Of a stretch of 64,000 nucleotides of DNA, positions 24,969 through 62,436 are shown one piece after another. The DNA is from a virus: positions 1 to 64,000 of IMG/VR virus record IMGVR_UViG_3300047160_019164. The stretch is one strand, 5' to 3'. How positions within the stretch are numbered: position 1 is the first letter of the stretch; the number at the start of each line of letters is the position of its first letter. The notes below the pieces were generated by a model. That model had not been told where the DNA came from, ran no database searches, and saw nothing but the letters and a program-made list of their open reading frames with translations. A program made the position numbers and the translations under genes.

Positions 24969-25096
24969 AAGTCCACCGCACGGCGCCGTGCGGTGGACTT
25001 TTTCGTATGAGAATCCCTCACGAAAAAAGAAATCGTCAGGGGCTCGGACGATTTCATGTTGCACAGGGATGCAATGCGGCTTATTGTTCTTCTCAC
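24969..25096 (+). promoter_or_regulatory. Promoter cassette copy A (palindrome copy 7 at 24973-24996, two inverted repeats, sigma70-like promoter)
   Basis: TTGCAC 25059-64, 17-bp spacer, TATTGT 25082-87; near-identical to 50869-50995. Confidence 0.85.
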
Positions 25097-25129
25097 AGGG
25101 CGACGGACGGACACGAAAGGGAAGCGACG

Positions 25130-30181: not shown

Positions 30182-33100
30182 ATGAACCAAGAGAACTACG
30201 TCAACGCATACGTCGATGGTGGTGAGATCGTTCTTCTGAAACGTGTCGACGGGAAGCTCGTCGAGAAGCGGACGCCGGCCGAGTACGTCACGTACTACGA
30301 ACAGAGCAAAGTCCCCTCCGAGCTGGTGCGCGCGTTGAAGACGTCGGAGAACGTGCTCTCCATGGTGCAGGAGAAGCAGTGGCTTCGCGTTCACTGGAAG
30401 CGCCCCTATCGCAAGAGCAACAAGAGTGATTGGGAATTCGACCCGCGGCGCTTCATGGCACAGGACGAGAGTAGTCCGTTCAACGAGCGCGGCATCGTCT
30501 CCTACGAAGCGGACGTTCATCCGGTGTTGCGGCACTTCGTCGATTGCGGGGTGGGCATCGCGAAGCCGAAACGCTGCTACATCGACTTGGAAACAGACAG
30601 CCGTGTCTCGTTCGCGCGCAAAGAGGAGATGCGCATCCTCTGCTACACGATCGTCGACGAGGACGGTGGAGTCGTCGACTCTGCTTGTCTTCAGGAAGAC
30701 ACCGATGCGTCGGAAGCCAAGTTGCTCACGCGAATGTGGGACTTGCTGCACAAGTACGATCAGGTGTGCGCCTGGAATGGTGATCGCTTCGACTTTCCGG
30801 TGATGTTCGCGCGTAGCCAAGGGCGCGAGGTCAACGTCGACGTGAATCGATGGCTGTGGCTCGACCACTTGATGGTCTTCAAGCGCATGAACGTGACGGC
30901 GTCGGAGAGCGGCGACGAGAAAACGTCGATGCGCTTGCAAGACGTGGCCACCGCTGTCCTCAAGGAAGGGAAGGACAAGTTCGATGGCTCGAAGACGTGG
31001 CAAGCGTGGGCGCGCGGCGATGGCTCGTGCCGCAAGGAAGCGTGTCCAGGCTGCGGCGAGAAGCACGAGCACAGCGCGCGCGAGTGCATGCGCCGCTACT
31101 GCCTGACGCCGGATCACAAGGTACTCGGTGAGGATCTTCGCTGGCGACCTTTGGGTGAATGCAAAGCGGGGGACGTAATCCTCGGGTTCGAGGAGAACGG
31201 TCCGAAGGGTTACGGTCGCCAGTATCGACGTGCCATCGTGAAGTCCGTCGAGCGAGCCATCGCGCCACTGTACGAGGTCGAGCTTGCTTCGGGGAAGAAG
31301 TTCCGGGTCACTCCAGATCACAAGTGGCTCGTCGCACGAGTGCGCAAGGACACTGGGTGCGTGAACCAGATGGAGTGGAGGGAGACCGTGGATCTTCTTT
31401 TCGATGGGCGCTCCATCCGCAGTGGTGGGAAAAGGATCACGAATGCCGGTTCGAGCGCGGCGATCAAGCTGTTCGACGTGTGGGAGGAGGATGAGACGAA
31501 AGAGGCCGGTTGGCTGGCCGGGATGTTGGACGGTGAAGGATCTCTTTCCGTGAAGAAGAACAAGGGCCAAAGGTCCGCTGGTGGGTTCACCATCCAAGTG
31601 GGACAGGTGCTCGGACCTACGGCGGATCGACTCCACGCCTTGATTCGAGAGAAGAGTGTCGTCGAACCGAAGGTCTGTTATGAGGCGCCGCGAGGGCCCA
31701 TCTCGCGCAAGTCCTTGAAGAAGATCATCGTGCGAGGCGCGATGCACGAGAAGTTGAAGTTCCTCGGCACGGTGCGACCCGAGCGGCTCATCCCGAAGGT
31801 CGACTTCGATCGCCTTGGCCGTGTCGAGGCCCGTAATCAGTTTGACCCTGTTGTGCGCGTGACGCCGATCCCCGATGGGGAGATCGTCATGATGGAGACG
31901 TCAACCAAGACCTTCGTCGCTGACGGATATCCGATGCACAACTGCGAGCAGGACACCAAGCTCCTCGCCAAGATCGAGAAGAAGACGGGTTACCTCGAGC
32001 TGTTCTTCTCACTCTGCCAAGCCTGCGGCATCTTCCCCGACAGTCCGTCGACGAACCCGACACACCAGGTCGACGGCTTCATGCTGCGACTCGGAAAGGA
32101 GCGCCACACGCACTTCCGCACGCGCAAGTTCGGCGAAGAGGTGGAGGCGTTCGAAGGTGCCTTCGTGATGATCCCCGAGTACAAGGGCATCGTGCGCAAC
32201 GTGCACGTCGGCGACTTCGCACGTCTGTACCCGTCCATCATCATCACGTGGAACATGAGCCCCGAGACGAAGGTCGGGGTGTACGACCATTCGACCAAAC
32301 TGGTCACGCGTGTCGATGGCAAGAAGGAGTCGATGCGCGAGGAGTGGGCGCGGGCACCGCGCACGAACGTGGTGTTCGACACCACGGCCCAAGGCATCCT
32401 TCCGACGGCGCTCTTGGAGATGATCCGCTTGCGCGCCTACTGGAACGATCGGAAGGCCAGCCTCACACCGGGGACCGAGGAGTGGCACGACGCCGACCGC
32501 CGCAGCACGGCTTACAAGATTGCGGCGAACAGTTTCTTTGGTGTCGCGGGCTCGCCCTTCAGCCGCTACTACGATAAGCAAGTCGGTGAGAGCATCACGC
32601 AAGCCGGTGTCTACTTGCTCAAGGCGACCATCGCCGAAGGGCTCACCTTCAAGCCACCAGTGCGTACGGGCTACGCCGACACCGACTCGATGTTTGCAGA
32701 CCGCGTGACGAAGGCCGAATTCGAAGCCTTCGTGAAGCACTGCAACGCTGAGTTGTACCCGCGCATCACCAAGGCGCACGGGTGTAAGGCGTACGACATC
32801 AAGTTCGCGTATGAGAAGCAATTCGACCGTCTCGTGATGACCGGCAAGAAGCGTTACGCCGCCCGCTACGCTCACTACAAGGGCAAGCTCGCAGCGAAGG
32901 ACAGCAAGCCCGAGATCAAGGGTCTCGAATTCAAGCGTGGCGACACCGCCAAGCTGGCGCGTCAGCTCCAAGAAGAAGCGATTCGCATGCTGCTCGGCAA
33001 TTGGGAAGAGCCCTTCACTGCGCCGACGGAAGTCGTCGACGACTACCACAAGCTCATCGCCAAGTTCCAGCGCGAGGTGCTCGAGGAGAAGTTGCCTACC

Positions 33101-34024
33101 GAACTGTGTGTCATCTCCAAGAACATCACGAAGAAGCTGCCGCCAAGTCAGCGTGAGGTCGAAGAGCGGTTGGAGAAGTTCAAGGCTACAGCCGAGAAAC
33201 GCAACAAGGAGTGGAACGACGAAGCTGTGCTCGACGCCATCGACACCATCATGGCGGAGTACGAGCGTGCGGATGGCTACAAGGCGCGCAAGAAGAACGA
33301 CGGCACACGCGTCGCTCATCCGCCGCACGTGCAGGTCGCTCTCATTCTGAAGGAACGCGGCGAAGAGGTGCATGCCGGTTCGAAGATCGGCTACGTGGTG
33401 GTGGACGGGTCGAAGTCGCCGATGAAGGTGATTCCCGCCAGTGACTTCACCGGCGTGGAGGCAGATCGCTGGTACCTGTGGGAGAACCTCGTGTGGCCAC
33501 CGACGGAGCGTCTACTCGTCGCGGCGTTCCCCGACCACGAGTGGAAGTCGTGGGGCAAGGTGCGGCCCAAGAAGCCGCGATTGCCACGCGGCAAGAAGAC
33601 GGCGCAGCTCGCATCCCCTGAAGTCAAGCCTCCCACCGCACGGCGCCGTGCGGTGAAGACTCCTGCGCTCGTTGCTGGCGGCTCCGTGGCGGTGCCGAAG
33701 CAAGCACCACCGCCAGCGGCTCCGGCCAAGGCCGAACCGGCTTCTTGGATGCCGCAGGTCGTCTCCCGCACCGCACGGCGCCGTGCGGTGGACCAGCCAC
33801 CCCTCGTAGCCCCAAAGGAAGAAGGGACGGGCATGGAGTGGCTCCTACCCGTGGGCCGTGGGACGAATCTCGACGAGGTGACGAAGGCGCTCAAGGCAGC
33901 ACCGGGGCGCACACCCGTGTTCTTGGAAGTGGCGCTCCAAGGTGCACGCCTCCGCGTCGACTTGCGGATCAAGGTGAAGCCGTCGAAGGAGCTTTGGTCG
34001 TTCGTCACTTCATTGCTCGTCTGA
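30182..34024 (+). CDS. Family B DNA polymerase with intein
   Basis: Exonuclease DLETD, WNGDRFDF, YC..D; polymerase DFARLYPSII, KIAANSFFG, YADTDS, KKRYA. Confidence 0.95.
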   Translation: MNQENYVNAYVDGGEIVLLKRVDGKLVEKRTPAEYVTYYEQSKVPSELVRALKTSENVLSMVQEKQWLRVHWKRPYRKSNKSDWEFDPRRFMAQDESSPFNERGIVSYEADVHPVLRHFVDCGVGIAKPKRCYIDLETDSRVSFARKEEMRILCYTIVDEDGGVVDSACLQEDTDASEAKLLTRMWDLLHKYDQVCAWNGDRFDFPVMFARSQGREVNVDVNRWLWLDHLMVFKRMNVTASESGDEKTSMRLQDVATAVLKEGKDKFDGSKTWQAWARGDGSCRKEACPGCGEKHEHSARECMRRYCLTPDHKVLGEDLRWRPLGECKAGDVILGFEENGPKGYGRQYRRAIVKSVERAIAPLYEVELASGKKFRVTPDHKWLVARVRKDTGCVNQMEWRETVDLLFDGRSIRSGGKRITNAGSSAAIKLFDVWEEDETKEAGWLAGMLDGEGSLSVKKNKGQRSAGGFTIQVGQVLGPTADRLHALIREKSVVEPKVCYEAPRGPISRKSLKKIIVRGAMHEKLKFLGTVRPERLIPKVDFDRLGRVEARNQFDPVVRVTPIPDGEIVMMETSTKTFVADGYPMHNCEQDTKLLAKIEKKTGYLELFFSLCQACGIFPDSPSTNPTHQVDGFMLRLGKERHTHFRTRKFGEEVEAFEGAFVMIPEYKGIVRNVHVGDFARLYPSIIITWNMSPETKVGVYDHSTKLVTRVDGKKESMREEWARAPRTNVVFDTTAQGILPTALLEMIRLRAYWNDRKASLTPGTEEWHDADRRSTAYKIAANSFFGVAGSPFSRYYDKQVGESITQAGVYLLKATIAEGLTFKPPVRTGYADTDSMFADRVTKAEFEAFVKHCNAELYPRITKAHGCKAYDIKFAYEKQFDRLVMTGKKRYAARYAHYKGKLAAKDSKPEIKGLEFKRGDTAKLARQLQEEAIRMLLGNWEEPFTAPTEVVDDYHKLIAKFQREVLEEKLPTELCVISKNITKKLPPSQREVEERLEKFKATAEKRNKEWNDEAVLDAIDTIMAEYERADGYKARKKNDGTRVAHPPHVQVALILKERGEEVHAGSKIGYVVVDGSKSPMKVIPASDFTGVEADRWYLWENLVWPPTERLLVAAFPDHEWKSWGKVRPKKPRLPRGKKTAQLASPEVKPPTARRRAVKTPALVAGGSVAVPKQAPPPAAPAKAEPASWMPQVVSRTARRRAVDQPPLVAPKEEGTGMEWLLPVGRGTNLDEVTKALKAAPGRTPVFLEVALQGARLRVDLRIKVKPSKELWSFVTSLLV
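31100..31942 (+). mobile_element. Intein (281 aa) with LAGLIDADG-type endonuclease motif
   Basis: Starts CLTPDHKV; block B VTPDHKW; WLAGMLDGEGS; ends FVADGYPMHN before +1 Cys. Confidence 0.93.
33633..33656. repeat. Palindrome copy 9 (23/24, inside polymerase C-terminal linker)
   Basis: PPTARRRAVK; 20-bp core intact. Confidence 0.95.
33768..33791. repeat. Palindrome copy 10 (23/24, inside polymerase C-terminal linker)
   Basis: SRTARRRAVD; 20-bp core intact. Confidence 0.95.
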
Positions 34025-35397: not shown

Positions 35398-36789
35398 ATG
35401 GCGAACAGCATCGACGACTTCTTGAACCATCGGACCAACAGCGGCGATCGCGCGTCCTTCTTCAAGTGGAAGGACAAGGGCGAAGCCGACGTGTGGTTGC
35501 ACACCAAGTGCATGCCGAAGCCCGTGTGGCGCCATCAGATTCCCAAGTTGGTGCCCATCGAGGACAAGGACACCAAAGAGACGCACATCATGCTGTGGAG
35601 CGAAAACGCGGTCTGCCACGAGGACGAAGAAATCCTCCGCGCGCAGTATCAGCGCGACGACGACGGCGCGCGGAAGAAGACTCCGACCAAGTGCGGGCTC
35701 TGTCGCTATGTCGAGTGGGTCTTCCAGCAAGTGCAGCAAGAGAAGCTCTCGTGGACTGATCCGGTGCTCCACTTCGAGGGCTTCACCAAGGAGAAGATCA
35801 AGGGCAATTGGGAGTACGTCGAGACGGAGCTGACGCTCCACGCCGGCGGGCTCTACGGTGCCTTTCAGAAGGTTGAGGACGACGACGAGAAGCGCGAGCT
35901 GAAGGAGGCTGGCATCTTCCTCAAAGAAGCGTGGAAGGAGAAGATGCTCGCGAGTTGCAACTACATCTTCCGCATCGTCGACAACAAGTCGATCAAGGAC
36001 GGCGTCCAGATCGCGATCGAAGCCTCGCTCCTCGGTGACAAGGTGAAGACCGTCATCAGTGACCGCATGCAGTCGGTCGGTCGTGACAAGGGCAACCCGA
36101 TGGTGACGCCGTACGCCATCCGTTGGAAGTACAACGACAAGGAGAAGGAATTCGGCAAGAAGTACCACGCGCTCCCGCTCGAGGAAGAGCGCATCTCGCA
36201 GACGATCCGCGACCTCATCATCGAAGCCGAGCCGCCGGACATCACGCGCCTGACGGAGCCCTACAACCAAGCCACCGTCCGCGCGTTCTTCGAGAAGCAC
36301 AGCGTCCTCAAGAACGTCCCGTGGGACAAGCTCTTCCGCAAGGAGAGCAGCGCTGGCAAGTCCACGACGGCCGGTGCGGAGGCGGAGAAGGCCAGCTCCA
36401 AGAAGGCACCGGACTCCGAGCCCGACGATCCCGACGAGACACAGGTCCGCAAGAAGCAGGACGACGGTCCACCGAAGGGCTACACCACGTCGACCGGCAT
36501 CTTCATCCCCGAAGACGATGCGGTCGAATGCAACAAGTGCGACAAGCCGATGCACGAGTCGTGGAACAAGTGCGTCGAGTGCGGCAAGACGTACGAAGGT
36601 GGCGAGGACCCGCCCGAGCCGCCCAAGAAGGAAGAGAAGGAACCGAAGATCGTTCCGCGCCGTCGTATGAAGGAGAAGGCTGAGACGAAGCCTGCCCCCA
36701 AGTCCGACCCGCCGCCCAAGAAGAAGCCCAAAGACGAAGAGGAAGACGAGGGTGGTGGGGACGAAGACGACGATTCCATCCCTTTCTAA
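35398..36789 (+). CDS. Single-stranded DNA-binding protein (gp32-like)
   Basis: Acidic C-terminus ending DDDSIPF; C/H-rich core; adjacent to RecA. Confidence 0.7.
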   Translation: MANSIDDFLNHRTNSGDRASFFKWKDKGEADVWLHTKCMPKPVWRHQIPKLVPIEDKDTKETHIMLWSENAVCHEDEEILRAQYQRDDDGARKKTPTKCGLCRYVEWVFQQVQQEKLSWTDPVLHFEGFTKEKIKGNWEYVETELTLHAGGLYGAFQKVEDDDEKRELKEAGIFLKEAWKEKMLASCNYIFRIVDNKSIKDGVQIAIEASLLGDKVKTVISDRMQSVGRDKGNPMVTPYAIRWKYNDKEKEFGKKYHALPLEEERISQTIRDLIIEAEPPDITRLTEPYNQATVRAFFEKHSVLKNVPWDKLFRKESSAGKSTTAGAEAEKASSKKAPDSEPDDPDETQVRKKQDDGPPKGYTTSTGIFIPEDDAVECNKCDKPMHESWNKCVECGKTYEGGEDPPEPPKKEEKEPKIVPRRRMKEKAETKPAPKSDPPPKKKPKDEEEDEGGGDEDDDSIPF

Positions 36790-48158: not shown

Positions 48159-50112
48159 AGCCCAAAGAGGCAACTCCGCTGGTGCGCTTCTTCCGTCGAA
48201 TGGCGGAGAAGTTGTTCGGTACGTGGAAGGAAGGCATTGAGCCACCTGACCGGCTTGGCGATATGGTCATTACCTTCGCCAACATGCACCCACACGCTAC
48301 TCGGCAGGATTGGGTTGTCTTCGCGACGTTTCACGCACGCGAAGCGTACCGAAGTGGTTACTTGCGCGGCGTCGAGTACGCCGAGCGCGAAGACGATGAA
48401 CCGGGCCTCGACCCCGATGTCTTGATGGACGCGATGAATGGCCCTTCGTGGCGCGGACGGCCCGTGGGACCGAATCTCGAGCCGCCCGCCGAAGACCTGC
48501 ACGATTGGGAGTGGTATCCGACCGAAGGTCCCACGCTGGAAGGCGACGTGGCTGCACGCGTGCGTGAGTACGAAGACGAGAACCACATTGCGTGGGAGCA
48601 GCTCACCAAGATGGAGAGTGCCGATCAGGAGCGTTCGAAGCGCTGAGCGGCATAAGGGGAGTGGAGGTGCACGATGTCCGAAGGAGACCCGTTGCAGTGG
48701 GCTCGCGCCCTCGGTGCCGGAACTGCGATGGTGATGCACATTCCCACGGACACCGTGGCGAAGGTGAAGGCGTTCTACGACGGTGTGACCACGAAGTTCA
48801 TCAGCCCCATCACCAACGAGCCCGTCAACGGGCCGGTGCTGGTGATGGAGGACGGGAACAGCTTCATGGCAGAGGACGAGAAGTCCTTTCACCGTATGAC
48901 CATGCAACAAGCGCAGTTCTATCGCACCATGCAGCGCGTAATCGCCAACACGCTGCGCGAAGCCGCGCAGCTCCTCAAGTCGCTCGGTATTCCGGTCGAC
49001 GTCGGCGTTTCGTTGTTGGTTGCTACGCTCAAGGCGCAGCTTCGTGTACTCGAAGCCAAGCCCGAAGCCATGCCGCAGACGCTTCCACCCGAGGAGATGC
49101 CCTGATGCCGCCCAACACCAACGTCCCCGTCGCCGCCCACAACGCGCTCAAGCAAGTGATCGACATGTATGGTCAGCTCCTCGTCGAACAGGAGCATAGG
49201 TTCATGATGGAGCGCGCGCAGTTGGAGCTTCAGATCAAGGACATCCACCACACGAACAACGAAGTGACCGCGCGCTGTCTCGAGATCGAGGGGAAGAACC
49301 AGAAGTTGGTCGCCACGAACGAAGGGCTCGCGGCCGACTTCGTGAAGATGACCCAACTGATTCAAGACCTGAAGGGGAGGGTCGACGAGCTGACGGAAGA
49401 GAACGATGCACTGAAGCGCGAGAATGAACGCTACGTACCGTCGCACCTGCGTCGAGAATCCCCTTCCCACGGCAATTACGGGAACGTGGGATCGGGTGGA
49501 TGATGGATGGTCCCAAGGCACTGCCGCCCTTCGTTATCGACGCGGCGCTAGGAAGTGGTGCAATCGATCTCCAGAAGTGGCGCACGTGGATCGATATCTA
49601 CGGTCCGATGTGCGCCGCGTGGCTGGTGAAGCACTTCAGTAAGACCATCAAGCAAGCGGGTCACTTCAAGGTCTTCGTGCCACGACTCGTCGATCTGTCC
49701 TTGCAGAGCAAGCGCTTCCGCTGGTTCAAGCTCGCACTCGCGTACATCCGCAAGTCCACGCGCTGGCGTGTAATCGTGCGTGACGTGTGGCACAAGGACA
49801 CCGACCGCGGCAAAGAATTCGACTTCAAGTGGATGTTGTCGAGGCATCGTCGTGGCTGAAGGTCGCTGGAAAGAGAAGTGGATCCCGCCGTGGGCTCCAC
49901 ATGTCGTCGGTGAGTACGACATGCCGCGCGAATTCCGCGAGGACGGGCTTCCCGAAGCGCAGTGGGTCGAGATGACCTGCACGCACGCGGAATGCGCAAG
50001 CCGGCCGAAGCCGCATTACCGAGTCCCGTGCACCAGTGGCAACGTCCGACAGCACGTCGCGCGGTTTGCACTGGTGCACATGCACAAGGATCCATTCGAA
50101 GGAGGGAAGTGA
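48155..50112 (+). other. Five hypothetical ORFs (48155-48646, 48674-49105, 49105-49503, 49500-49859, 49852-50112)
   Basis: Tiled with stop/start overlaps; no family recognised. Confidence 0.55.
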
Positions 50113-50756
50113 TGAGCGGGAAGTTCGTGGTGATAGAGGGTATTGATGGGTCTGGGAAGACGAGCTTGGTGAAGCTGATGGCGGCGGAGCTGCGGAAGCG
50201 TGGGTTCACCGTGCACGAGACGTACGAGCCCACGCACGGTGAGATCGGCGCGTTGGCGCGCAAGGCGTTCAGTGCGGAGTCGAAACACATCGACGACCCG
50301 CTTGCGTGGGCGAAGCAGGAGATGCTCCTCGCGGCCGATCGCATGCACCATCTGTTTGGTGAAGTGAACCCGGCGCTCGAGACGCACGACTACGTCATCT
50401 GCGATCGCTACGTCGGCAGCGGGTACGCGTACGGCATGGCGTCGCGTCCGAATTCCGTCTCCACGTTGAGCGCGCATGGGTTCCTCTGCGGCATGTATGC
50501 GTTCGCGTGGAAGCCGGATTACTGCATCCTCGTCGACGTGCCGATCGAAGTGGCAGTGGAGCGCATGGCCAAGCGCACGGACAAGACGCGCTACGACGTC
50601 GACGTGGAGTTGCTCAAGCGGGTGCGTAGCATCTACAACAGCGAAGCCGCAGAGCATCGGCACTGGTACACCATCCGTTCCGGTGCCATGACGGCCGAGC
50701 AGACATGTCTCGCAGCGCTCGATCGCACGGGCATCGGCCTGCGCAGAACCTCGTAA
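50112..50756 (+). CDS. tmk: Thymidylate (dNMP) kinase
   Basis: FVVIEGIDGSGKT, EP, AADR..H, VICDRY, KPD motifs. Confidence 0.9.
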   Translation: MSGKFVVIEGIDGSGKTSLVKLMAAELRKRGFTVHETYEPTHGEIGALARKAFSAESKHIDDPLAWAKQEMLLAADRMHHLFGEVNPALETHDYVICDRYVGSGYAYGMASRPNSVSTLSAHGFLCGMYAFAWKPDYCILVDVPIEVAVERMAKRTDKTRYDVDVELLKRVRSIYNSEAAEHRHWYTIRSGAMTAEQTCLAALDRTGIGLRRTS

Positions 50757-50863
50757 CCACCGCAAGCGAAAACGTCGGAGTGACGCGAGCGCGGTCCCTA
50801 TAAGGTGGGGACTGTCTGTGGCAGGTCGGGCGCGAAACGGCGCTAGCTAGCGGCCTGCCGCAC

Positions 50864-50995
50864 CGAAAAAGTCCACCGCACGGCGCCGTGCGGTGGACTT
50901 TTTCGTATGAGAATCCCTCACGAAAAAGGAAATCGTCAGGGCTCGGACGATTTCATGTTGCACAGGGATGCAATGCGGCTTATTGTTCTTCTCAC
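50864..50995 (+). promoter_or_regulatory. Promoter cassette copy B (palindrome copy 14 at 50873-50896, extended to 42 bp; sigma70-like promoter)
   Basis: TTGCAC 50958-63, 17-bp spacer, TATTGT 50981-86; cgaaaaagt-core-actttttcg. Confidence 0.85.
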
Positions 50996-51028
50996 GGTGA
51001 ACACGACGGTGACGCAAGGAGGTGTGTG

Positions 51029-51253
51029 ATGGACATGCGACGTAGCCAAGCGGCAAAGGTGCTGGATAGTGTGCGCACGATGTTGGCCCAACGTGAGAGC
51101 CCGGAGAAGATCGAGAGGTATCTGTCGCTCCAGTTTGGCATCGAAGCCCTCGTCAAGTGCAGTGGCGAAGCGCACTCCAACGCGCACATCGACAATTGCG
51201 GTTGCTGTGCGCCGCGGTGGGGTTGGGTGGGCGATACCGTCAACATCAAGTAG
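51029..51253 (+). CDS. Small early hypothetical protein (Cys/His-rich)
   Basis: AAGGAGG RBS; first ORF after the promoter; its stop overlaps the ribozyme. Confidence 0.65.
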   Translation: MDMRRSQAAKVLDSVRTMLAQRESPEKIERYLSLQFGIEALVKCSGEAHSNAHIDNCGCCAPRWGWVGDTVNIK

Positions 51254-51304
51254 GTCGAAACGGGCACCAGCCCGTCCGCACGTGATGCGTGCGCTGACGA
51301 GACC
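51253..51304 (+). ncRNA. Type II hammerhead ribozyme 1
   Basis: GGTC-GAAA-CGGGC(acca)GCCCG-TC-CGCACG(tgatg)CGTGCG-CTGACGA-GACC: complete core, three perfect stems. Confidence 0.93.
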
Positions 51305-51318
51305 AGGAGCAAGTAGCC

Positions 51319-51555
51319 ATGGACACCAGCAAGATCGCGATCGGGGAAGTCGTGAAGGCCACCGCCACCACGTATACGGGCAAGATGTACGGCGGCGGGC
51401 TCATCGCCGGGCAGCTCTACAAGGTGGTTGATATGAGTCACCTACGCTGTACGTTCGGCGGTCACACCACGTTGTTCGTGCGCTCCGTCGACCGCAGCAT
51501 CGACCGCGGCATCATTCCGGTGCGGAACGCGCACCTGGTGTTGGAGGTGGCGTGA
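51319..51555 (+). CDS. Small hypothetical protein between the ribozymes
   Basis: AGGAG RBS immediately after ribozyme 1. Confidence 0.65.
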   Translation: MDTSKIAIGEVVKATATTYTGKMYGGGLIAGQLYKVVDMSHLRCTFGGHTTLFVRSVDRSIDRGIIPVRNAHLVLEVA

Positions 51556-51836
51556 TGATCAACCGTTATACGGTCGAGAACGCGGTGGTCGTTGCCAGCC
51601 TGCTCACGGAGCAGGGCTTCTTCGCGCATGTCTACTCGGACCAGGAGTCGGTCGTTTGCACCGATGCGCCAGTAGCTAAGGTGCAAACGACCGAGCGCAA
51701 GGCGTTCGAGCCGATCGAAGTGGCGTACTACACCGGGACGTGGAAGCGGCAGGTGTGCAAGACGCCCGCATCGTTCCGCAAGCTGGTGGACCGTTGCATC
51801 GACGAGGGCTGGGAAACGCGTACGCGCAAGGCGTGA
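51555..51836 (+). CDS. Small hypothetical protein between the ribozymes
   Basis: GGAGG RBS, TGATG overlap. Confidence 0.65.
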   Translation: MINRYTVENAVVVASLLTEQGFFAHVYSDQESVVCTDAPVAKVQTTERKAFEPIEVAYYTGTWKRQVCKTPASFRKLVDRCIDEGWETRTRKA

Positions 51837-51840
51837 TGTA

Positions 51841-51902
51841 GGTCGAAACCACCGCACGGCGCCGTGCGGTGGTCCGGGCGTAAGGCGCCCGCTGACGAGA
51901 CC
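51841..51902 (+). ncRNA. Type II hammerhead ribozyme 2; stem III is palindrome copy 15 (51849-51872)
   Basis: GGTC-GAAA-[CCACCGCACGGCGCCGTGCGGTGG]-TC-CGGGCG(taagg)CGCCCG-CTGACGA-GACC. Confidence 0.93.
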
Positions 51903-51919
51903 ACGAGGAGCAAGCCGAC

Positions 51920-52291
51920 ATGAGGACCACGAGCTTCCACGGCCACGCGCTCAACCTCCCGGCCGGCCGACTCGGCCGCACTCAGCGCTACGCGCTGGAG
52001 CACATCTACGAAGAGGGACAGGACTCGACCGATCGTGCCCTCCACCTCCACGGTCGGGCAGCGCGCTACGCTAGCCGCTACGCCACCGCGCTCGCGAACA
52101 TCGTCGACGCGAACCCGCACCTCTTCGCCGGCGGTCCGTTCGGACCGCGCGGCGGCCGCGGGTACAAGTGGATTTGGCACGGACCGATCCAGGCACCCCG
52201 GTGCACCGCGCACGAGGACTGCCGCGCGTGCGTCGACGTCGCGCTCGCGTGCGATCAAGAAGCCACGCGGCATAACCCAAACAAGCGCTGA
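51920..52291 (+). CDS. Hypothetical protein
   Basis: GAGGAG RBS after ribozyme 2. Confidence 0.6.
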   Translation: MRTTSFHGHALNLPAGRLGRTQRYALEHIYEEGQDSTDRALHLHGRAARYASRYATALANIVDANPHLFAGGPFGPRGGRGYKWIWHGPIQAPRCTAHEDCRACVDVALACDQEATRHNPNKR

Positions 52292-52319
52292 GGCGCAGCA
52301 ACCCAAAGGAGCACAGAAG

Positions 52320-53276
52320 ATGCCCACCAAGAAGCCGTTCGATCGTGACAAGTGGCTCGAGGAGAAGCGCGCCAAGGTGCAGGACGCGAAGGAGATGCTG
52401 GAGACTGGGCTCACTGCACTGCGCACCAGCGACGAGTGGAAAGCGTGCATGACTGCCATCGCGAAGAACGCGCGCCTGCGTTACAGCGTTACCCGCTACA
52501 GTTTCGGAAACCAGATGATGCTCGCCTGTCAGTGCGCTGGTGCGAACCGACCGCAGCCCACGAGCGTCGCTACCTTCAAGGCGTGGCAGCGCGTCGGTCG
52601 CAGCGTGAAGAAGGGCGAGAAGGGGATGTTCATCCTCACGCCGAAGCCCTGGAAGCGCGAGGAGAAGCAAAGCGACGGCACCTCCAAGGAGCTGCGCGGC
52701 ATGTCGTTCGGCGTGGCGCACGTGTTCGACATCGCGCAGACCGAAGGTGACGAGCTGCCTGTACCGCCGCGCGTGACGGTGGACATCGAAGATGCCGCCA
52801 CCTTCAGCGCGGACGTGGAGACGCTGCGCGAAGTGGCGCTCGCCATCGACGGCGAACCGGTGAGCGATATCGAGATCCGTGCCAACCAACCGGGCGACCC
52901 GACCAACGCGCAAGGCTGGTACGTCATCTCCACCAAGGCGATCGTCGTGGTGGAGCACCGCAGCCGCGCTCACATGTTCAAGACGCTCGTCCACGAGGTG
53001 GCGCACGCGTTGCTCCATCCCAAGGGCGACCACCACTCTACGCCCGAGCGCGAGGTCGAAGCTGAATCGACGGCGTTCATCGTCTGCCAGGTGCTCGGTC
53101 TCAGTACCGACGCCTTTAGCTTCCCGTACGTCGAGTCGTGGGCGCAGCGCGCGAGCTGCACGTCGAACGACATGATCGCCAAGTGCGGCGACCGCATCAC
53201 CAAGGCGTCGCATACCATCTTGGATGCGCTCCTCGGCAAGCAAGTCGAAGAGCCCAACGAGGAAGAGGCTGCGTAA
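52320..53276 (+). CDS. ArdC-like antirestriction / ssDNA-binding protein with metallopeptidase domain
   Basis: YSFGNQMML, ATFKAWQRVGRSVKKGEKG, VFDIAQTEG, HEVAH, EVEAES.A. Confidence 0.85.
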   Translation: MPTKKPFDRDKWLEEKRAKVQDAKEMLETGLTALRTSDEWKACMTAIAKNARLRYSVTRYSFGNQMMLACQCAGANRPQPTSVATFKAWQRVGRSVKKGEKGMFILTPKPWKREEKQSDGTSKELRGMSFGVAHVFDIAQTEGDELPVPPRVTVDIEDAATFSADVETLREVALAIDGEPVSDIEIRANQPGDPTNAQGWYVISTKAIVVVEHRSRAHMFKTLVHEVAHALLHPKGDHHSTPEREVEAESTAFIVCQVLGLSTDAFSFPYVESWAQRASCTSNDMIAKCGDRITKASHTILDALLGKQVEEPNEEEAA

Positions 53277-55984
53277 TGGCTCGCTGGTCGCTCAAGCGGC
53301 TCAAGGAGCACGGCTTCGATAAGAGCACGAGTGACCGCGTTGGACGTCTCACGGTGGGCTGCTCGCAGTGCGCCGTGAGCGTCATCAACGGCACTCCGTG
53401 CCACGAACACGACTGCCCTAATTGGGTGCGGCGTAACAAGCTCGGACAGGAAGTGGAGGACTAGATGGCCACCGACATCGAAGAGGTCGACGAGAATCGT
53501 TTGGAGACGTGGATCTTGCGCTTCAAGAAACACCGCATCCTTGCGCGCCAAGGCTCCTACGAAGCGCGCAAGTTCTACGAGCGCATGGCGCGTCGCGACG
53601 AGATCATGATTCGCACCTTCATGGCGGAAGCGTCGTGAAGCCGGTCCAGATCGGCGAAGAAGACTATCACGACCATGTCGAAGGGAGTGACGGTATCTGC
53701 CTGAGCTGTGGCGAGTGGAAGTACGGTGACTGCGAGCCCGACGCCGAGAACTACAGGTGCGACGAGTGCGGTGCGATGGAGGTGATGGGCGTCGAGATGG
53801 CGATGGTGGCCGGTCACATTCAACTAGTCGAAGATGACTCGTGAAGCCCGTGGGTGAAGGAGCGAGTGATGGTGGTGCGCGAATTCAAAGAGCTGCACGA
53901 GGGCTTCGTCTTCTACAAGTGGATGAGCGTGGCGGTCGCCAATCGCCGCATCAAGTGGCAATGGGTCAAGCACGAAGTGCGCGCACGCTTCGACCCTGAA
54001 GAAGTGCCCTGGGAGAAGGGTCAACCGCCGGTCATCTCGCACCACGTGGTGTACCGCTACTGGTCTCCCAAGCGTGGATGGCACTACGAGCATGACGAGG
54101 AGTGGCTGATGTCGGTCAACACCATGATGAGTCTCTCGGCCTTCAAGCCGGGGAAGGACCCGTGGGGGAAGGACTTGGACAAGTGAAGATCATGTTTCAT
54201 CCCAACAAAGGTCCGGCGCGCAAAGCCAAGCTTCCTTACACCGATGCGGACTACTGTGTTGTCGATGGTGAGTGCCCTTACTGCAAAGCGATGCCATTCC
54301 ACGCCGCAGGTGTGAAGGGCACGATGGTGAAGGGGCACGCCACGCTCACGAGTGATGCCGGTTGTATCGGCTGCAAGGTCGTCACTGGCAAGTTGGTCGT
54401 GAAGGTCAACACGCTGTTTGGTATCGAAGAAGACGAACGTGTCATGCGCAGTGGAGTGAGGATCTACTGATGAAGCACACACTCAAGGTCAAAGACCTCA
54501 ACAACCTCCGGCTATCGGAAGCCACGATGGCTGTGTGCGATGCGGCCGAGAAGCTCAAGCAAGCGGCACGCACCTACGCGGATAAGGTTCCCAAGAACGA
54601 ACCGAGCGGGTTGCCCTCAAACGTCGACTTCGTTGACCAAAGCCCCGAAGGGAAAGCATTGGAGGCTGCGGCGCGTGACTTCTCGCTCTGGTACGACGCA
54701 CTGGCGCACGTGAAGGTGCGGGAGAAGCTCTGATGGCACGCAAGATCGCGGTCATATCACCGGCACTGGTCGATATCCTTCAAGACCCCGGTCGCCAGCG
54801 TGAGTCGCTCGTCGGCCCACTGTGGGATGCGATGAGCCTCGGTTGGTGCACGTGTCACACGTTCCGAATCGCTGGTAATGATTGGATCGCGGTGTTGACG
54901 AAGAAGGGCATCGCGGCACGTAGCCAGCACGTACAGGACAAGACCATCTTACTCTCGAAGTCGTGGCACTTCGTGAAGCAACCCAATGGGCTCCTCGCAT
55001 GGTGGTCAGACGCGACCGCCACTTTCGAAGAATTCAACATCGGTGTGCAGGAAGCCGAGGAATACGCCTGCGAGCAGGTGTCGCTTTCGCGCAGCATCGG
55101 CAAGCGCGTAAGCACTGTGATGCTCCAAGAGGCGCTCGACGACGTCCTACGTGGCTTTCCCTTCCAAGAGGCCAGAATCGAGAGCAAAGACGGGTTGGTG
55201 CGTTGGCGGAATTGCCTGCGGCTCATGCGAGGCATTCACGGTTTCGAACACGTACGTAGAGCAGAAGAACAAGCTCGATGAGCTTCCTTGCCTATTGTTG
55301 TGACGCTCGCCAGGTGCCCGAAGTGTTTTCTACACGAGCGGCGGCAGAGGCGTACTTGCGGCAGTGGGCTTGCTATCCCGATCCTGGTCGAATTGTTGAG
55401 GAATGCCCGATGACTTGGCGCTTTCATACAACGTGTGTGCAGAGTGATTACCTGTCTATTACGACCATGCAGGATAAGGCGGTGTCGATTACGTATCGCA
55501 CCATGCGCAGGAAGCTCGGTAAGGTGCTCACTGACGTGGAAGAGATGTTGGGCTACGACACGGGTCGTGGGAAGCGTGGGCTGCGAATGAAGAACGACTT
55601 CGCCGTGTCGTTCTACAAGTCCACCTACCAGGGGAAGCCGTGCTTGTACTTCGTGTGGTCGCACATCGAGCACATCTTCTTGGAGGATTGAGGCATGGCA
55701 ACGCGGACGTACATGCGCGGGGGAGAGGTCGTCACCTTCGAGACCAAGGTGCTGTTCAGCACCACGTACATCGACATGAGCGGCCTTCGCGTCCTCACGC
55801 ACGCGCGCCAAGGCCGTTACATGCAGCCGACGCGTGAAGCGGCCGAAGAGGCGCTCAAGAACCTCCTCGAGAACAACACGGAGCAGCGGCTCGCCGACAT
55901 CTACGGTCCGCAGTCCATCGGTACCTTCCGTGTCGACGCGTTCGAGTGTTACGAGCACGGCGACCCTATTCACCTCTTGGAGAA

Positions 55985-56062
55985 GCCGTGAGCGACCTGG
56001 ACGAAGACCCGCGCCACCGCATCGCCGTGAGCGACCTGGACGAAGACCCGCGCCACCGCATC
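55985..56062 (+). repeat. 39-bp tandem duplication
   Basis: GCCGTGAGCGACCTGGACGAAGACCCGCGCCACCGCATC twice. Confidence 0.9.
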
Positions 56063-56300
56063 GTCATCGACGGCGTGGCCTACAGCGGCAAGAAGCTCGC
56101 CGTCTATGCGTACGCGCTAGCGCTCAAGGTGTCGGTCGAAGCGGCAGCTTTGGTCGCCGTCTACATGGACCTTCTGGTGCTCTACGACGTGTCGGTGTTC
56201 CCGCCGCAACGAGCCACGTTGCGCGCCACCCTGTTCGGCCCACGCAACGAAAGGTGTGCCTGATGCGCAAGCGACTCGTCGAGACCCCCTTCGGCAGCTC

Positions 56301-56324
56301 CGACCGCACGGCGCCGTGCGGTGG
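56301..56324. repeat. Palindrome copy 16 (23/24, inside ORF 56263, DRTAPCGG)
   Basis: 20-bp core intact. Confidence 0.95.
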
Positions 56325-57145
56325 GGAACCGGCCACGCCAGGACTCCGCAAACGCGTCCAGACGCACGAACCGCCCGTTGCTCCGGCCAACGCCCAAAGA
56401 CGCGCCACGGAGGCAGCTATGGGGGGCGCGCTGGCCGATATCGATGCCGACATCGTGCGGCTTAGGGACCAGCTCGGCGTCGGGTTCGCCATCACGGTGG
56501 TGGCGCCCATCAACGCGCCAGGGTTCGAGACGTGTCGTATCGGCTTGAGCTGGCACCGGCTCAGCGCGTTGCAGGCGCACCTCCCTACGGCCACGCGCAT
56601 CACCTTCGTGTCCACGCTGCGCGCGGGACTCGACTACATGTTCGAGTACGAGAAGCGCGTGGACCGCGACGGCGAAGAGGCGACGCACCGTTGGCACCTA
56701 GAACAGCGCACCATCCGCGAGAAGGAGATGGACCGCCTCATCGAAGAGGTGAGGAAGGTGCGTGCGCGATGAGCAGCCCCATCACCATCGATCATTCCAA
56801 GCGCACCACTCCGTGCAACCCGACGTGCCAGCACCCGCTCTGTAAGTGGCTCATGAAGGAGCAACGTATGCAGAAGGCACGGGCACTCGCGGAGCGGATC
56901 AAGAGCGTGAATCTGTACTGCGAACCGGGTGACCACTTCGACAATTCAGTTTCAGCCATCTACATGTGCGTCGACGCGTTGGTGAAGCTCGTCGAGGAGA
57001 GCTAGCGATTGGTCAAGCCGGTAAGTGGGATGACGTCGGTGATCGCCGATCCTGTACATGAATGGTCGAGTAGCCAATGATGACCGAGACGAAACGTCGT
57101 GAGCTCGCGAAGCGGGTGGAGAACGATGTACGCGCGTCCTTCTCG

Positions 57146-62333: not shown

Positions 62334-62357
62334 CCACCGCACGGCGCCGTGCGGTGG
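62334..62357. repeat. 24-bp palindrome copy 18
   Basis: Perfect copy 3 nt before the tRNA. Confidence 0.97.
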
Positions 62358-62360
62358 CAT

Positions 62361-62436
62361 TGCGCGGTAGAGCAACGGCAGCTCGCTAGGGGTTCATACC
62401 CTGGAAGTAGGAGGTTCGATTCCTCCCCGCGCGACC
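62361..62436 (+). tRNA. Atypical tRNA, fMet-like body with anticodon loop GTTCATA
   Basis: Acceptor TGCGCGG/CCGCGCG, D arm GAGC/GCTC, anticodon stem CTAGGG/CCCTGG, T arm GGAGG-TTCGATT-CCTCC. Confidence 0.8.

Follow-up and report, generated by a model that had tools for sequence, protein, structure and literature searches.

An uncultured soil phage carries two type II hammerhead ribozymes, here termed HH1 (positions 51253-51304) and HH2 (51841-51902), on the sense strand of an operon whose small genes all run in one direction. We consider it likely, with a probability of about 0.8, that both elements are functional and that they cleave the operon transcript into end-protected, insulated mRNAs; the cleavage and the benefit derived from it are both predictions. 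The argument is built on the motif and the way it folds, on the family to which it belongs, on covariation, and on its location between cistrons, and from these we infer cleavage in the host and a gain in stability or insulation. On this reading, the locus is a clean example of phages cutting their own operon transcripts by ribozyme rather than by host RNases. The intergenic arrangement of phage hammerheads has been known since 2011 (Perreault et al.); the locus is in this respect clean but ordinary and should not surprise a ribozyme specialist.

The operon and the anatomy of its ribozymes

The source is a 92,463-bp IMG/VR virus record that CheckV rates as complete, and the stretch analyzed here (the “window”) is its first 64 kb. 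Identical sequence was found in soil-metagenome DNA runs, and no RNA run is listed among those containing it; contigs from four of these DNA runs carry it at low depth, without variants, joints, or ends that touch the ribozyme question. Among cultured phages, no match was found with positions 50800-52300 (BLASTN) or with the ORF at 35398-36789 (tblastn). A 1280-aa ORF (30182-34024) matched cultured phages by tblastn over a segment of about 280 aa only, and no host was assignable. The matching segment, residues ~306-589 of this ORF, is 37-38% identical to parts of genes that carry a terminase annotation in cluster-C-like mycobacteriophages. That unrelated genes have an internal segment in common would be in line with an intein or homing element, inserted in the large ORF, that both of them share.

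All of the operon features described here are on the plus strand. A long terminator-like hairpin with A-run and U-run flanks (50866-50906), which is a copy of a palindrome dispersed through the genome, ends the preceding gene block; it is followed by UUUUU, and its core recurs unchanged as stem III of HH2. A promoter-like element comes next, and then gene 1 (51029-51253; 74 aa; GC3 0.76), which has AAGGAGG upstream of its ATG. The TAG of gene 1 (51251-53) shares a single base with HH1, namely the first G of the ribozyme. Gene 2 (51319-51555; 78 aa; GC3 0.87) is preceded by AGGAG at 51305-09, and its ATG at 51319 lies 15 nt from HH1. The ATG of gene 3 (51555-51836; 93 aa; GC3 0.83) overlaps the TGA of gene 2, and its own TGA (51834-36) lies 4 nt before HH2. 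Gene 4 (51920-52291; 123 aa; GC3 0.84) follows AGGAG at 51906-10, with its ATG at 51920, 18 nt from HH2. Thus, each ribozyme sits between a stop codon and an AGGAG, as an earlier reading of the letters alone (the sequence-only reading) had described. Ribozymes are confined to two of the operon's junctions; none is present at the next one, 52292-52319.

The GC3 values of genes 1-4 (0.76-0.87) resemble those of this phage's confirmed genes. PHROGs and Pfam searches gave no family for any of the four. The ESM Atlas yields weak leads only, pointing in the case of gene 2 to a small beta-barrel-like phage protein. No loci related to the cargo genes 2 and 3 were found in viral contigs.

HH1 is composed of GGUC (51253-56), GAA (51257-59), the stem III hairpin (51260-75, running from A15.1 to U16.1), C17 (51276), the stem I hairpin (51277-93), CUGACGA (51294-51300), and GACC (51301-04). 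The corresponding parts of HH2 are GGUC (51841-44), GAA (51845-47), the stem III hairpin (51848-73), C17 (51874), the stem I hairpin (51875-91), CUGACGA (51892-98), and GACC (51899-51902). Both elements therefore display the type II order: the 5' strand of stem II, GAAA, stem III, UC, stem I, CUGACGA, and the 3' strand of stem II. Stems I and III are capped by loops, and stem II is open, formed by the 5' and 3' ends of the motif. Every invariant nucleotide of the hammerhead core (C3 U4 G5 A6 N7 G8 A9 and G12 A13 A14) is intact in both copies. The consensus is completed in each by A15.1-U16.1 (A51260-U51275 in HH1, A51848-U51873 in HH2), by G10.1-C11.1 (G51301-C51256 and G51899-C51844), and by the GUC triplet; C1.1-G2.1 closes stem I in both.

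The two elements are 588 nt apart. Their cores and stems II are identical, and their stems I and III differ throughout while remaining fully paired, which bears out the first description of the pair. The minimum-free-energy fold (ViennaRNA) of each element is the three-way hammerhead junction, whether it is folded alone or with its flanks. Judged by sequence, neither element lacks any part of a type II hammerhead. The cut sites that had been predicted, after C51276 and after C51874, fit the type II consensus and its GUC triplet; the interval so delimited, 51277-51874, is 598 nt long and holds the two ORFs of genes 2 and 3.

A scan for the three hammerhead topologies, covering both strands of the window and of the complete 92,463-bp genome, matched only HH1 and HH2. 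Random sequences from a first-order Markov model of the window contain, for every 64 kb, 0.05 matches when the stem lengths are relaxed and none when the observed lengths are required. At gathering scores over the whole window, Rfam reports a tRNA only, and a 1.6-kb E-value scan returned no hammerhead because of its filters. When approximately 90 nt were searched, RF02276 (Hammerhead_II) was the top Rfam match for both elements, at 25.8 bits for HH1 and 21.9 bits for HH2. The Rfam check proposed with the sequence-only reading thus points to the right family, but at scores under its gathering score of 37 bits. Nearly all relatives of these elements also fall below Rfam gathering, and we therefore ascribe the shortfall to the coverage of the Rfam model and not to defects in HH1 or HH2.

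A phage subfamily and its covariation

An IUPAC pattern of the parts shared by HH1 and HH2 matches more than 120 IMG/VR contigs among the matches listed, and 53 stretches in a set of 185,579 species, each represented by a single genome. These genome matches occur in very diverse hosts, including Acidobacteriota, Chloroflexota, Pseudomonadota, Actinomycetota, Melainabacteria, and haloarchaea. The pattern demanded no pairing, and nonetheless both hairpins form in 124 of the 126 pattern matches listed. We define the subfamily by a GGUC/GACC stem II, an invariant A at position -1, a purine at +1, a 6-bp stem I with a U-N-A-N-G loop, and an intercistronic position in the sense strand. The A at -1 is present in 108/108 listed members and in 150/150 sequences of a model-based alignment; neither this base nor the purine at +1 was forced by the pattern. 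Stem I comprises five covarying pairs and one conserved G-C pair beneath the U-N-A-N-G loop. HH1 and HH2 have A at both -1 and +1, and no loop is commoner in the subfamily than the two they carry, UGAUG and UAAGG.

Covariation was assessed in an ungapped alignment of 31 sequences, in which 99.8% of the cells are paired (25-46% in slid controls) and 119 cells carry double changes, against 35.7 in shuffles. Double changes occur in 10 of the 16 pairs of the family alignment. Stem II covaries as well, in hits that lie outside the search pattern (for example, GGAC/GUCC, GGCC/GGCC, and GACC/GGUC). A covariance model, R1, was built from 31 other phage contigs, none of them from this phage. Its seeds were retrieved with the pattern derived from HH1 and HH2, so that their match in the core is by construction, but the match in the stems, loop I, and flanks is not. 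With R1, HH1 reaches 74.5 bits (E = 3.6e-19) and HH2 reaches 65.0 bits (E = 1.9e-16), whereas 9.5 bits is the score of the next-best match in the window.

The genomic setting of the relatives is equally regular. R1 yields 162 hits in 100 loci. An upstream open frame ends no more than 15 nt from the ribozyme in 104 of 108 listed members (21 in the reverse-strand control), and in most family members the stop lies within 3 nt. A Shine-Dalgarno sequence, start codon, and open frame follow 10-43 nt downstream in 63 of the 108, compared with 4 in the control. Among the best 150 of the 162 hits, arrays of 2-6 copies, always on one strand, are found in 28 of 97 loci, and neighboring copies are separated by a median of 550 nt (interquartile range, 350-814).

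Of the 44 hits that R1 gives in 12 related array loci, Rfam at gathering detects a single one, which is weak by R1 and of the classical type II form. An abundant subfamily is therefore nearly invisible to Rfam at this threshold, and annotations of phages under-count ribozymes as a consequence. One contig, L063, holds an Rfam-detectable classical type II hammerhead (1240-1306; 60.4 bits) in an array with four subfamily members (at 1559, 1950, 2598, and 3248), which are on the same strand and are missed by Rfam. Because this array mixes the two, the classical and subfamily forms appear interchangeable at operon junctions. A further peculiarity is seen in 6 of the 108 listed members (L004, L007, L010, L061, L077, and L090), in which GUCAG directly follows stem II. 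This tail is complementary to the core CUGAC, with which it might pair in a rival hairpin that would be a candidate off-state; neither HH1 nor HH2 has it.

The subfamily also departs from the published type II hammerheads in its loop I. In the majority of those ribozymes, but not in all, loop I forms a pseudoknot with the 3' tail that follows stem II; in the type II consensus, this pseudoknot serves fast cleavage at low Mg2+ (PMC3088659). By the criterion of that consensus, at least 4 bp between loop I and the 3' tail, the pseudoknot is absent from HH1 and HH2, whose best complementarity is 3 bp in each case. Across the subfamily, such pairing of at least 5 bp is mildly enriched (10.3% versus 3.9% in permutations). 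The sequence-only reading had proposed a different partner, a CAUCA at 51244-48 upstream of HH1. This segment does complement loop I of HH1, but pairing of this kind is at chance level: at least 5 bp between loop I and the 5' leader is found in 6.2% of 97 family members and in 7.3% of permuted pairings, and HH2 has no such partner. We do not retain this pseudoknot.

Conservation of the U-N-A-N-G loop, together with the invariance of A(-1), suggests, at the level of sequence, a contact of the loop-receptor type instead of a pseudoknot. Mutual information between the variable positions of loop I and the flanks gave weak signals only, inseparable from the relatedness of the sequences. Given the lack of a pseudoknot, the activity of HH1 and HH2 would depend on this putative alternative tertiary contact. 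Whether the subfamily with GGUC/GACC, A(-1), and U-N-A-N-G is an undescribed structural variant of type II, with a non-pseudoknot contact and systematically missed by Rfam, is in our estimation close to an even bet.

The dispersed palindrome and the duplicated block

The most distinctive detail of the locus concerns HH2, in which a repeat copy serves as stem III. The genome contains 26 copies (23 of them exact) of the 22-bp perfect palindrome CACCGCACGGCGCCGTGCGGTG, 18 in the window, between 2630 and 62356, and 8 beyond it. Apart from the A15.1-U16.1 pair, stem III of HH2 consists entirely of the copy at 51849-51872. Many copies directly follow stop codons and have arm extensions specific to their loci; some lie inside long ORFs. 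The palindrome may serve as a hairpin at RNA 3' ends or as a protein-binding site, or it may be a mini mobile element. One copy is located 4 nt upstream of a tRNA gene (62361-62434; Rfam, 42.8 bits), within the region 62335-62434.

The terminator-like hairpin upstream of gene 1 belongs to a larger repeat. A block of ~130 nt is present almost exactly at 24970-25100 and at 50870-50998, and it contains the palindrome terminator with its U-run, a second hairpin, and the promoter-like TTGCAC-N17-TATTGT. This last element occupies 50958-50986 in the operon and has a second exact copy at 25059-25087; the identity of the two blocks ends just past the -10-like hexamer. We regard the block as probably a reused terminator-plus-promoter module. 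The promoter that had been placed at 50958 is thus represented by its hexamers and their spacing, but a sigma-70 consensus scan of 50000-57000 called no promoter, and the function of the element is putative.

Predicted processing of the transcript, its alternatives, and known systems

We propose the following course of events. Once transcribed, each ribozyme would fold into the three-way junction and cleave itself 3' of C17 (C51276 in HH1, C51874 in HH2), and the two cuts would split the transcript into gene 1, genes 2-3, and gene 4 onward. With a stem II of only 4 bp that is open, the products should separate after cleavage. The upstream product would end in the stem III hairpin plus one nucleotide, C17, bearing a 2',3'-cyclic phosphate. 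The downstream product would start with a 5'-OH nucleotide already paired within the stem I hairpin; 11 single-stranded nucleotides of the core would come next, and then the Shine-Dalgarno sequence. The type II topology, combined with the short open stem II, is thus expected to leave both product ends flush with hairpins. Stable hairpins flush with RNA ends normally protect from end-dependent nucleases, and it follows from established RNA-decay biology that such ends would hinder 3' exonucleases as well as the 5'-end-dependent RNase E or RNase J. Further, the translation-initiation regions would be insulated from their upstream context, as in a natural insulator of the RiboJ type. The topology and the short stem II hence yield a hypothesis of stability and insulation that can be tested.

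The suggestion that the operon's polycistron is processed by its own ribozymes is consistent with their intercistronic sites in the sense strand and with the published interpretation of phage hammerheads; its remaining part, cleavage in the host, is a prediction. For clustered hammerheads that flank genes in phages and prophages, processing of a long phage transcript into gene-length mRNAs has been proposed, and self-cleavage of the prophage clusters was shown in E. coli as well as in vitro (PMC3088659). For type II hammerheads that neighbor phage-like genes, cleavage has been demonstrated in vivo (Olzog et al., PMC8782182).

The position of the upstream stops, 0 nt from HH1 and 4 nt from HH2, raises another possibility. 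A ribosome terminating at such a distance must overlap stems II and III and would unfold them, so that cleavage would compete with translation; cleavage may in this way be kinetically coupled to translation of the upstream gene. It is thus conceivable, but in our view improbable, that the ribozymes serve conditional or negative control, in which cleavage competes with upstream translation or another signal, uncouples or destabilizes the cistrons, and so sets their stoichiometry or timing. The presence of ribozymes at only some of the junctions is in keeping with such a role, as is glmS, whose 5'-OH end triggers decay of the RNA; in some hosts, RNase J1 targets 5'-OH ends of this kind. Both new ends here, however, would be flush with stable hairpins, which should be protective. 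Nor is a ligand-binding or switch element visible, and the hairpin-forming GUCAG tail is missing from both ribozymes.

Two other explanations appear less probable still. In one, the sequence-only reading's suggestion of a circular phage mRNA, the ends of the cut 598-nt fragment would reassemble as a chimeric hammerhead, and ligation, through reversal of the ribozyme reaction or through host RtcB, would close the fragment into a circular mRNA of two genes; in a variant of this idea, the pieces on either side would be joined to each other, with the cassette spliced out. Hammerhead cleavage leaves RtcB-compatible ends, and the shared core and stem II would allow the isolated ends to form a full hammerhead (cofold, -36.4 kcal/mol, versus -31.2 kcal/mol apart). 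But in the ensemble of the folded 598-nt RNA, the pairing probability of the chimeric stem II is only ~1.5%; in 13 of 53 adjacent ribozyme pairs from related arrays, the stem II strands are unable to pair; and searches of the phage genome detected neither RtcB (PF01139) nor RNA ligase (PF09414). The idea was also considered by Perreault et al., who sought circular or spliced products and detected none (PMC3088659). We accordingly hold the circular mRNA to be very improbable. The other explanation, of comparably slight probability, holds that HH1 and HH2 are inactive look-alikes, either clusters of hairpins (a terminator or repeat with chance matches to the core) or decayed ribozymes that no longer cleave. 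The scores below the Rfam gathering threshold, the lack of a pseudoknot, and, in HH2, a stem III that is no more than another copy of the dispersed palindrome could all be read in this manner. Against it stand the intact invariant core of both elements, where ~0.05 matches are expected by chance, the family-model E values of 1e-16 to 1e-19, and the conservation of A-1 and loop I. The 26-nt stem III of HH2 also lies within the range of the family, since 11 of 106 listed members have one that is as long or longer.

The reading that we favor, self-cleavage of the operon transcript into protected and insulated mRNAs, places HH1 and HH2 among several known systems. Compared with the type II hammerheads of RF02276 (PMC3088659), the present elements have a stem II of 4 bp (GGUC/GACC) instead of 1-2 bp, lack the pseudoknot of loop I with the 3' tail, bear a conserved 5-nt U-N-A-N-G loop on a 6-bp stem, and score 22-26 bits against a gathering score of 37. 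In the prophages of A. tumefaciens (ardA), A. caulinodans, and C. scindens, hammerheads flank single genes or short blocks (PMC3088659), and the bracketing of small genes by ribozymes on the same strand is common to those clusters and to this operon. Unlike them, the present locus belongs to an uncultured 92-kb soil phage, has only two ribozymes, encloses cargo genes that have no known family, and has one ribozyme whose stem III is a copy of a genome-wide palindrome.

The hammerheads of Desulfovibrio vulgaris are likewise of type II topology and occur in two copies, ~300 nt apart, with phage-like genes as neighbors; their 2',3'-cyclic phosphate and 5'-OH ends were captured in vivo by cyPhyRNA-seq (PMC8782182), whereas the ends described here are predicted from sequence. 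Those ribozymes are also larger, with a 5' fragment of 29-32 nt and a 3' fragment of 39 nt, as opposed to 24 or 34 nt and 28 nt here. Tandem hammerheads in viroids, satellite RNAs, and retrozymes excise unit-length RNAs with ligatable ends, and circles have been demonstrated in these systems (PMC4918200, PMC7229834). They are of type I or III and lie inside repeats of replicating or retrotransposing RNA, whereas HH1 and HH2 are of type II and would act in the mRNA of a DNA phage.

A last parallel comes from synthetic biology. RiboJ is an engineered insulator derived from a type III hammerhead of a satellite RNA. Like RiboJ, a hammerhead upstream of the ribosome-binding site would here remove the upstream context and leave a 5' hairpin; unlike RiboJ, these natural elements would also furnish the upstream mRNA with a 3' hairpin.
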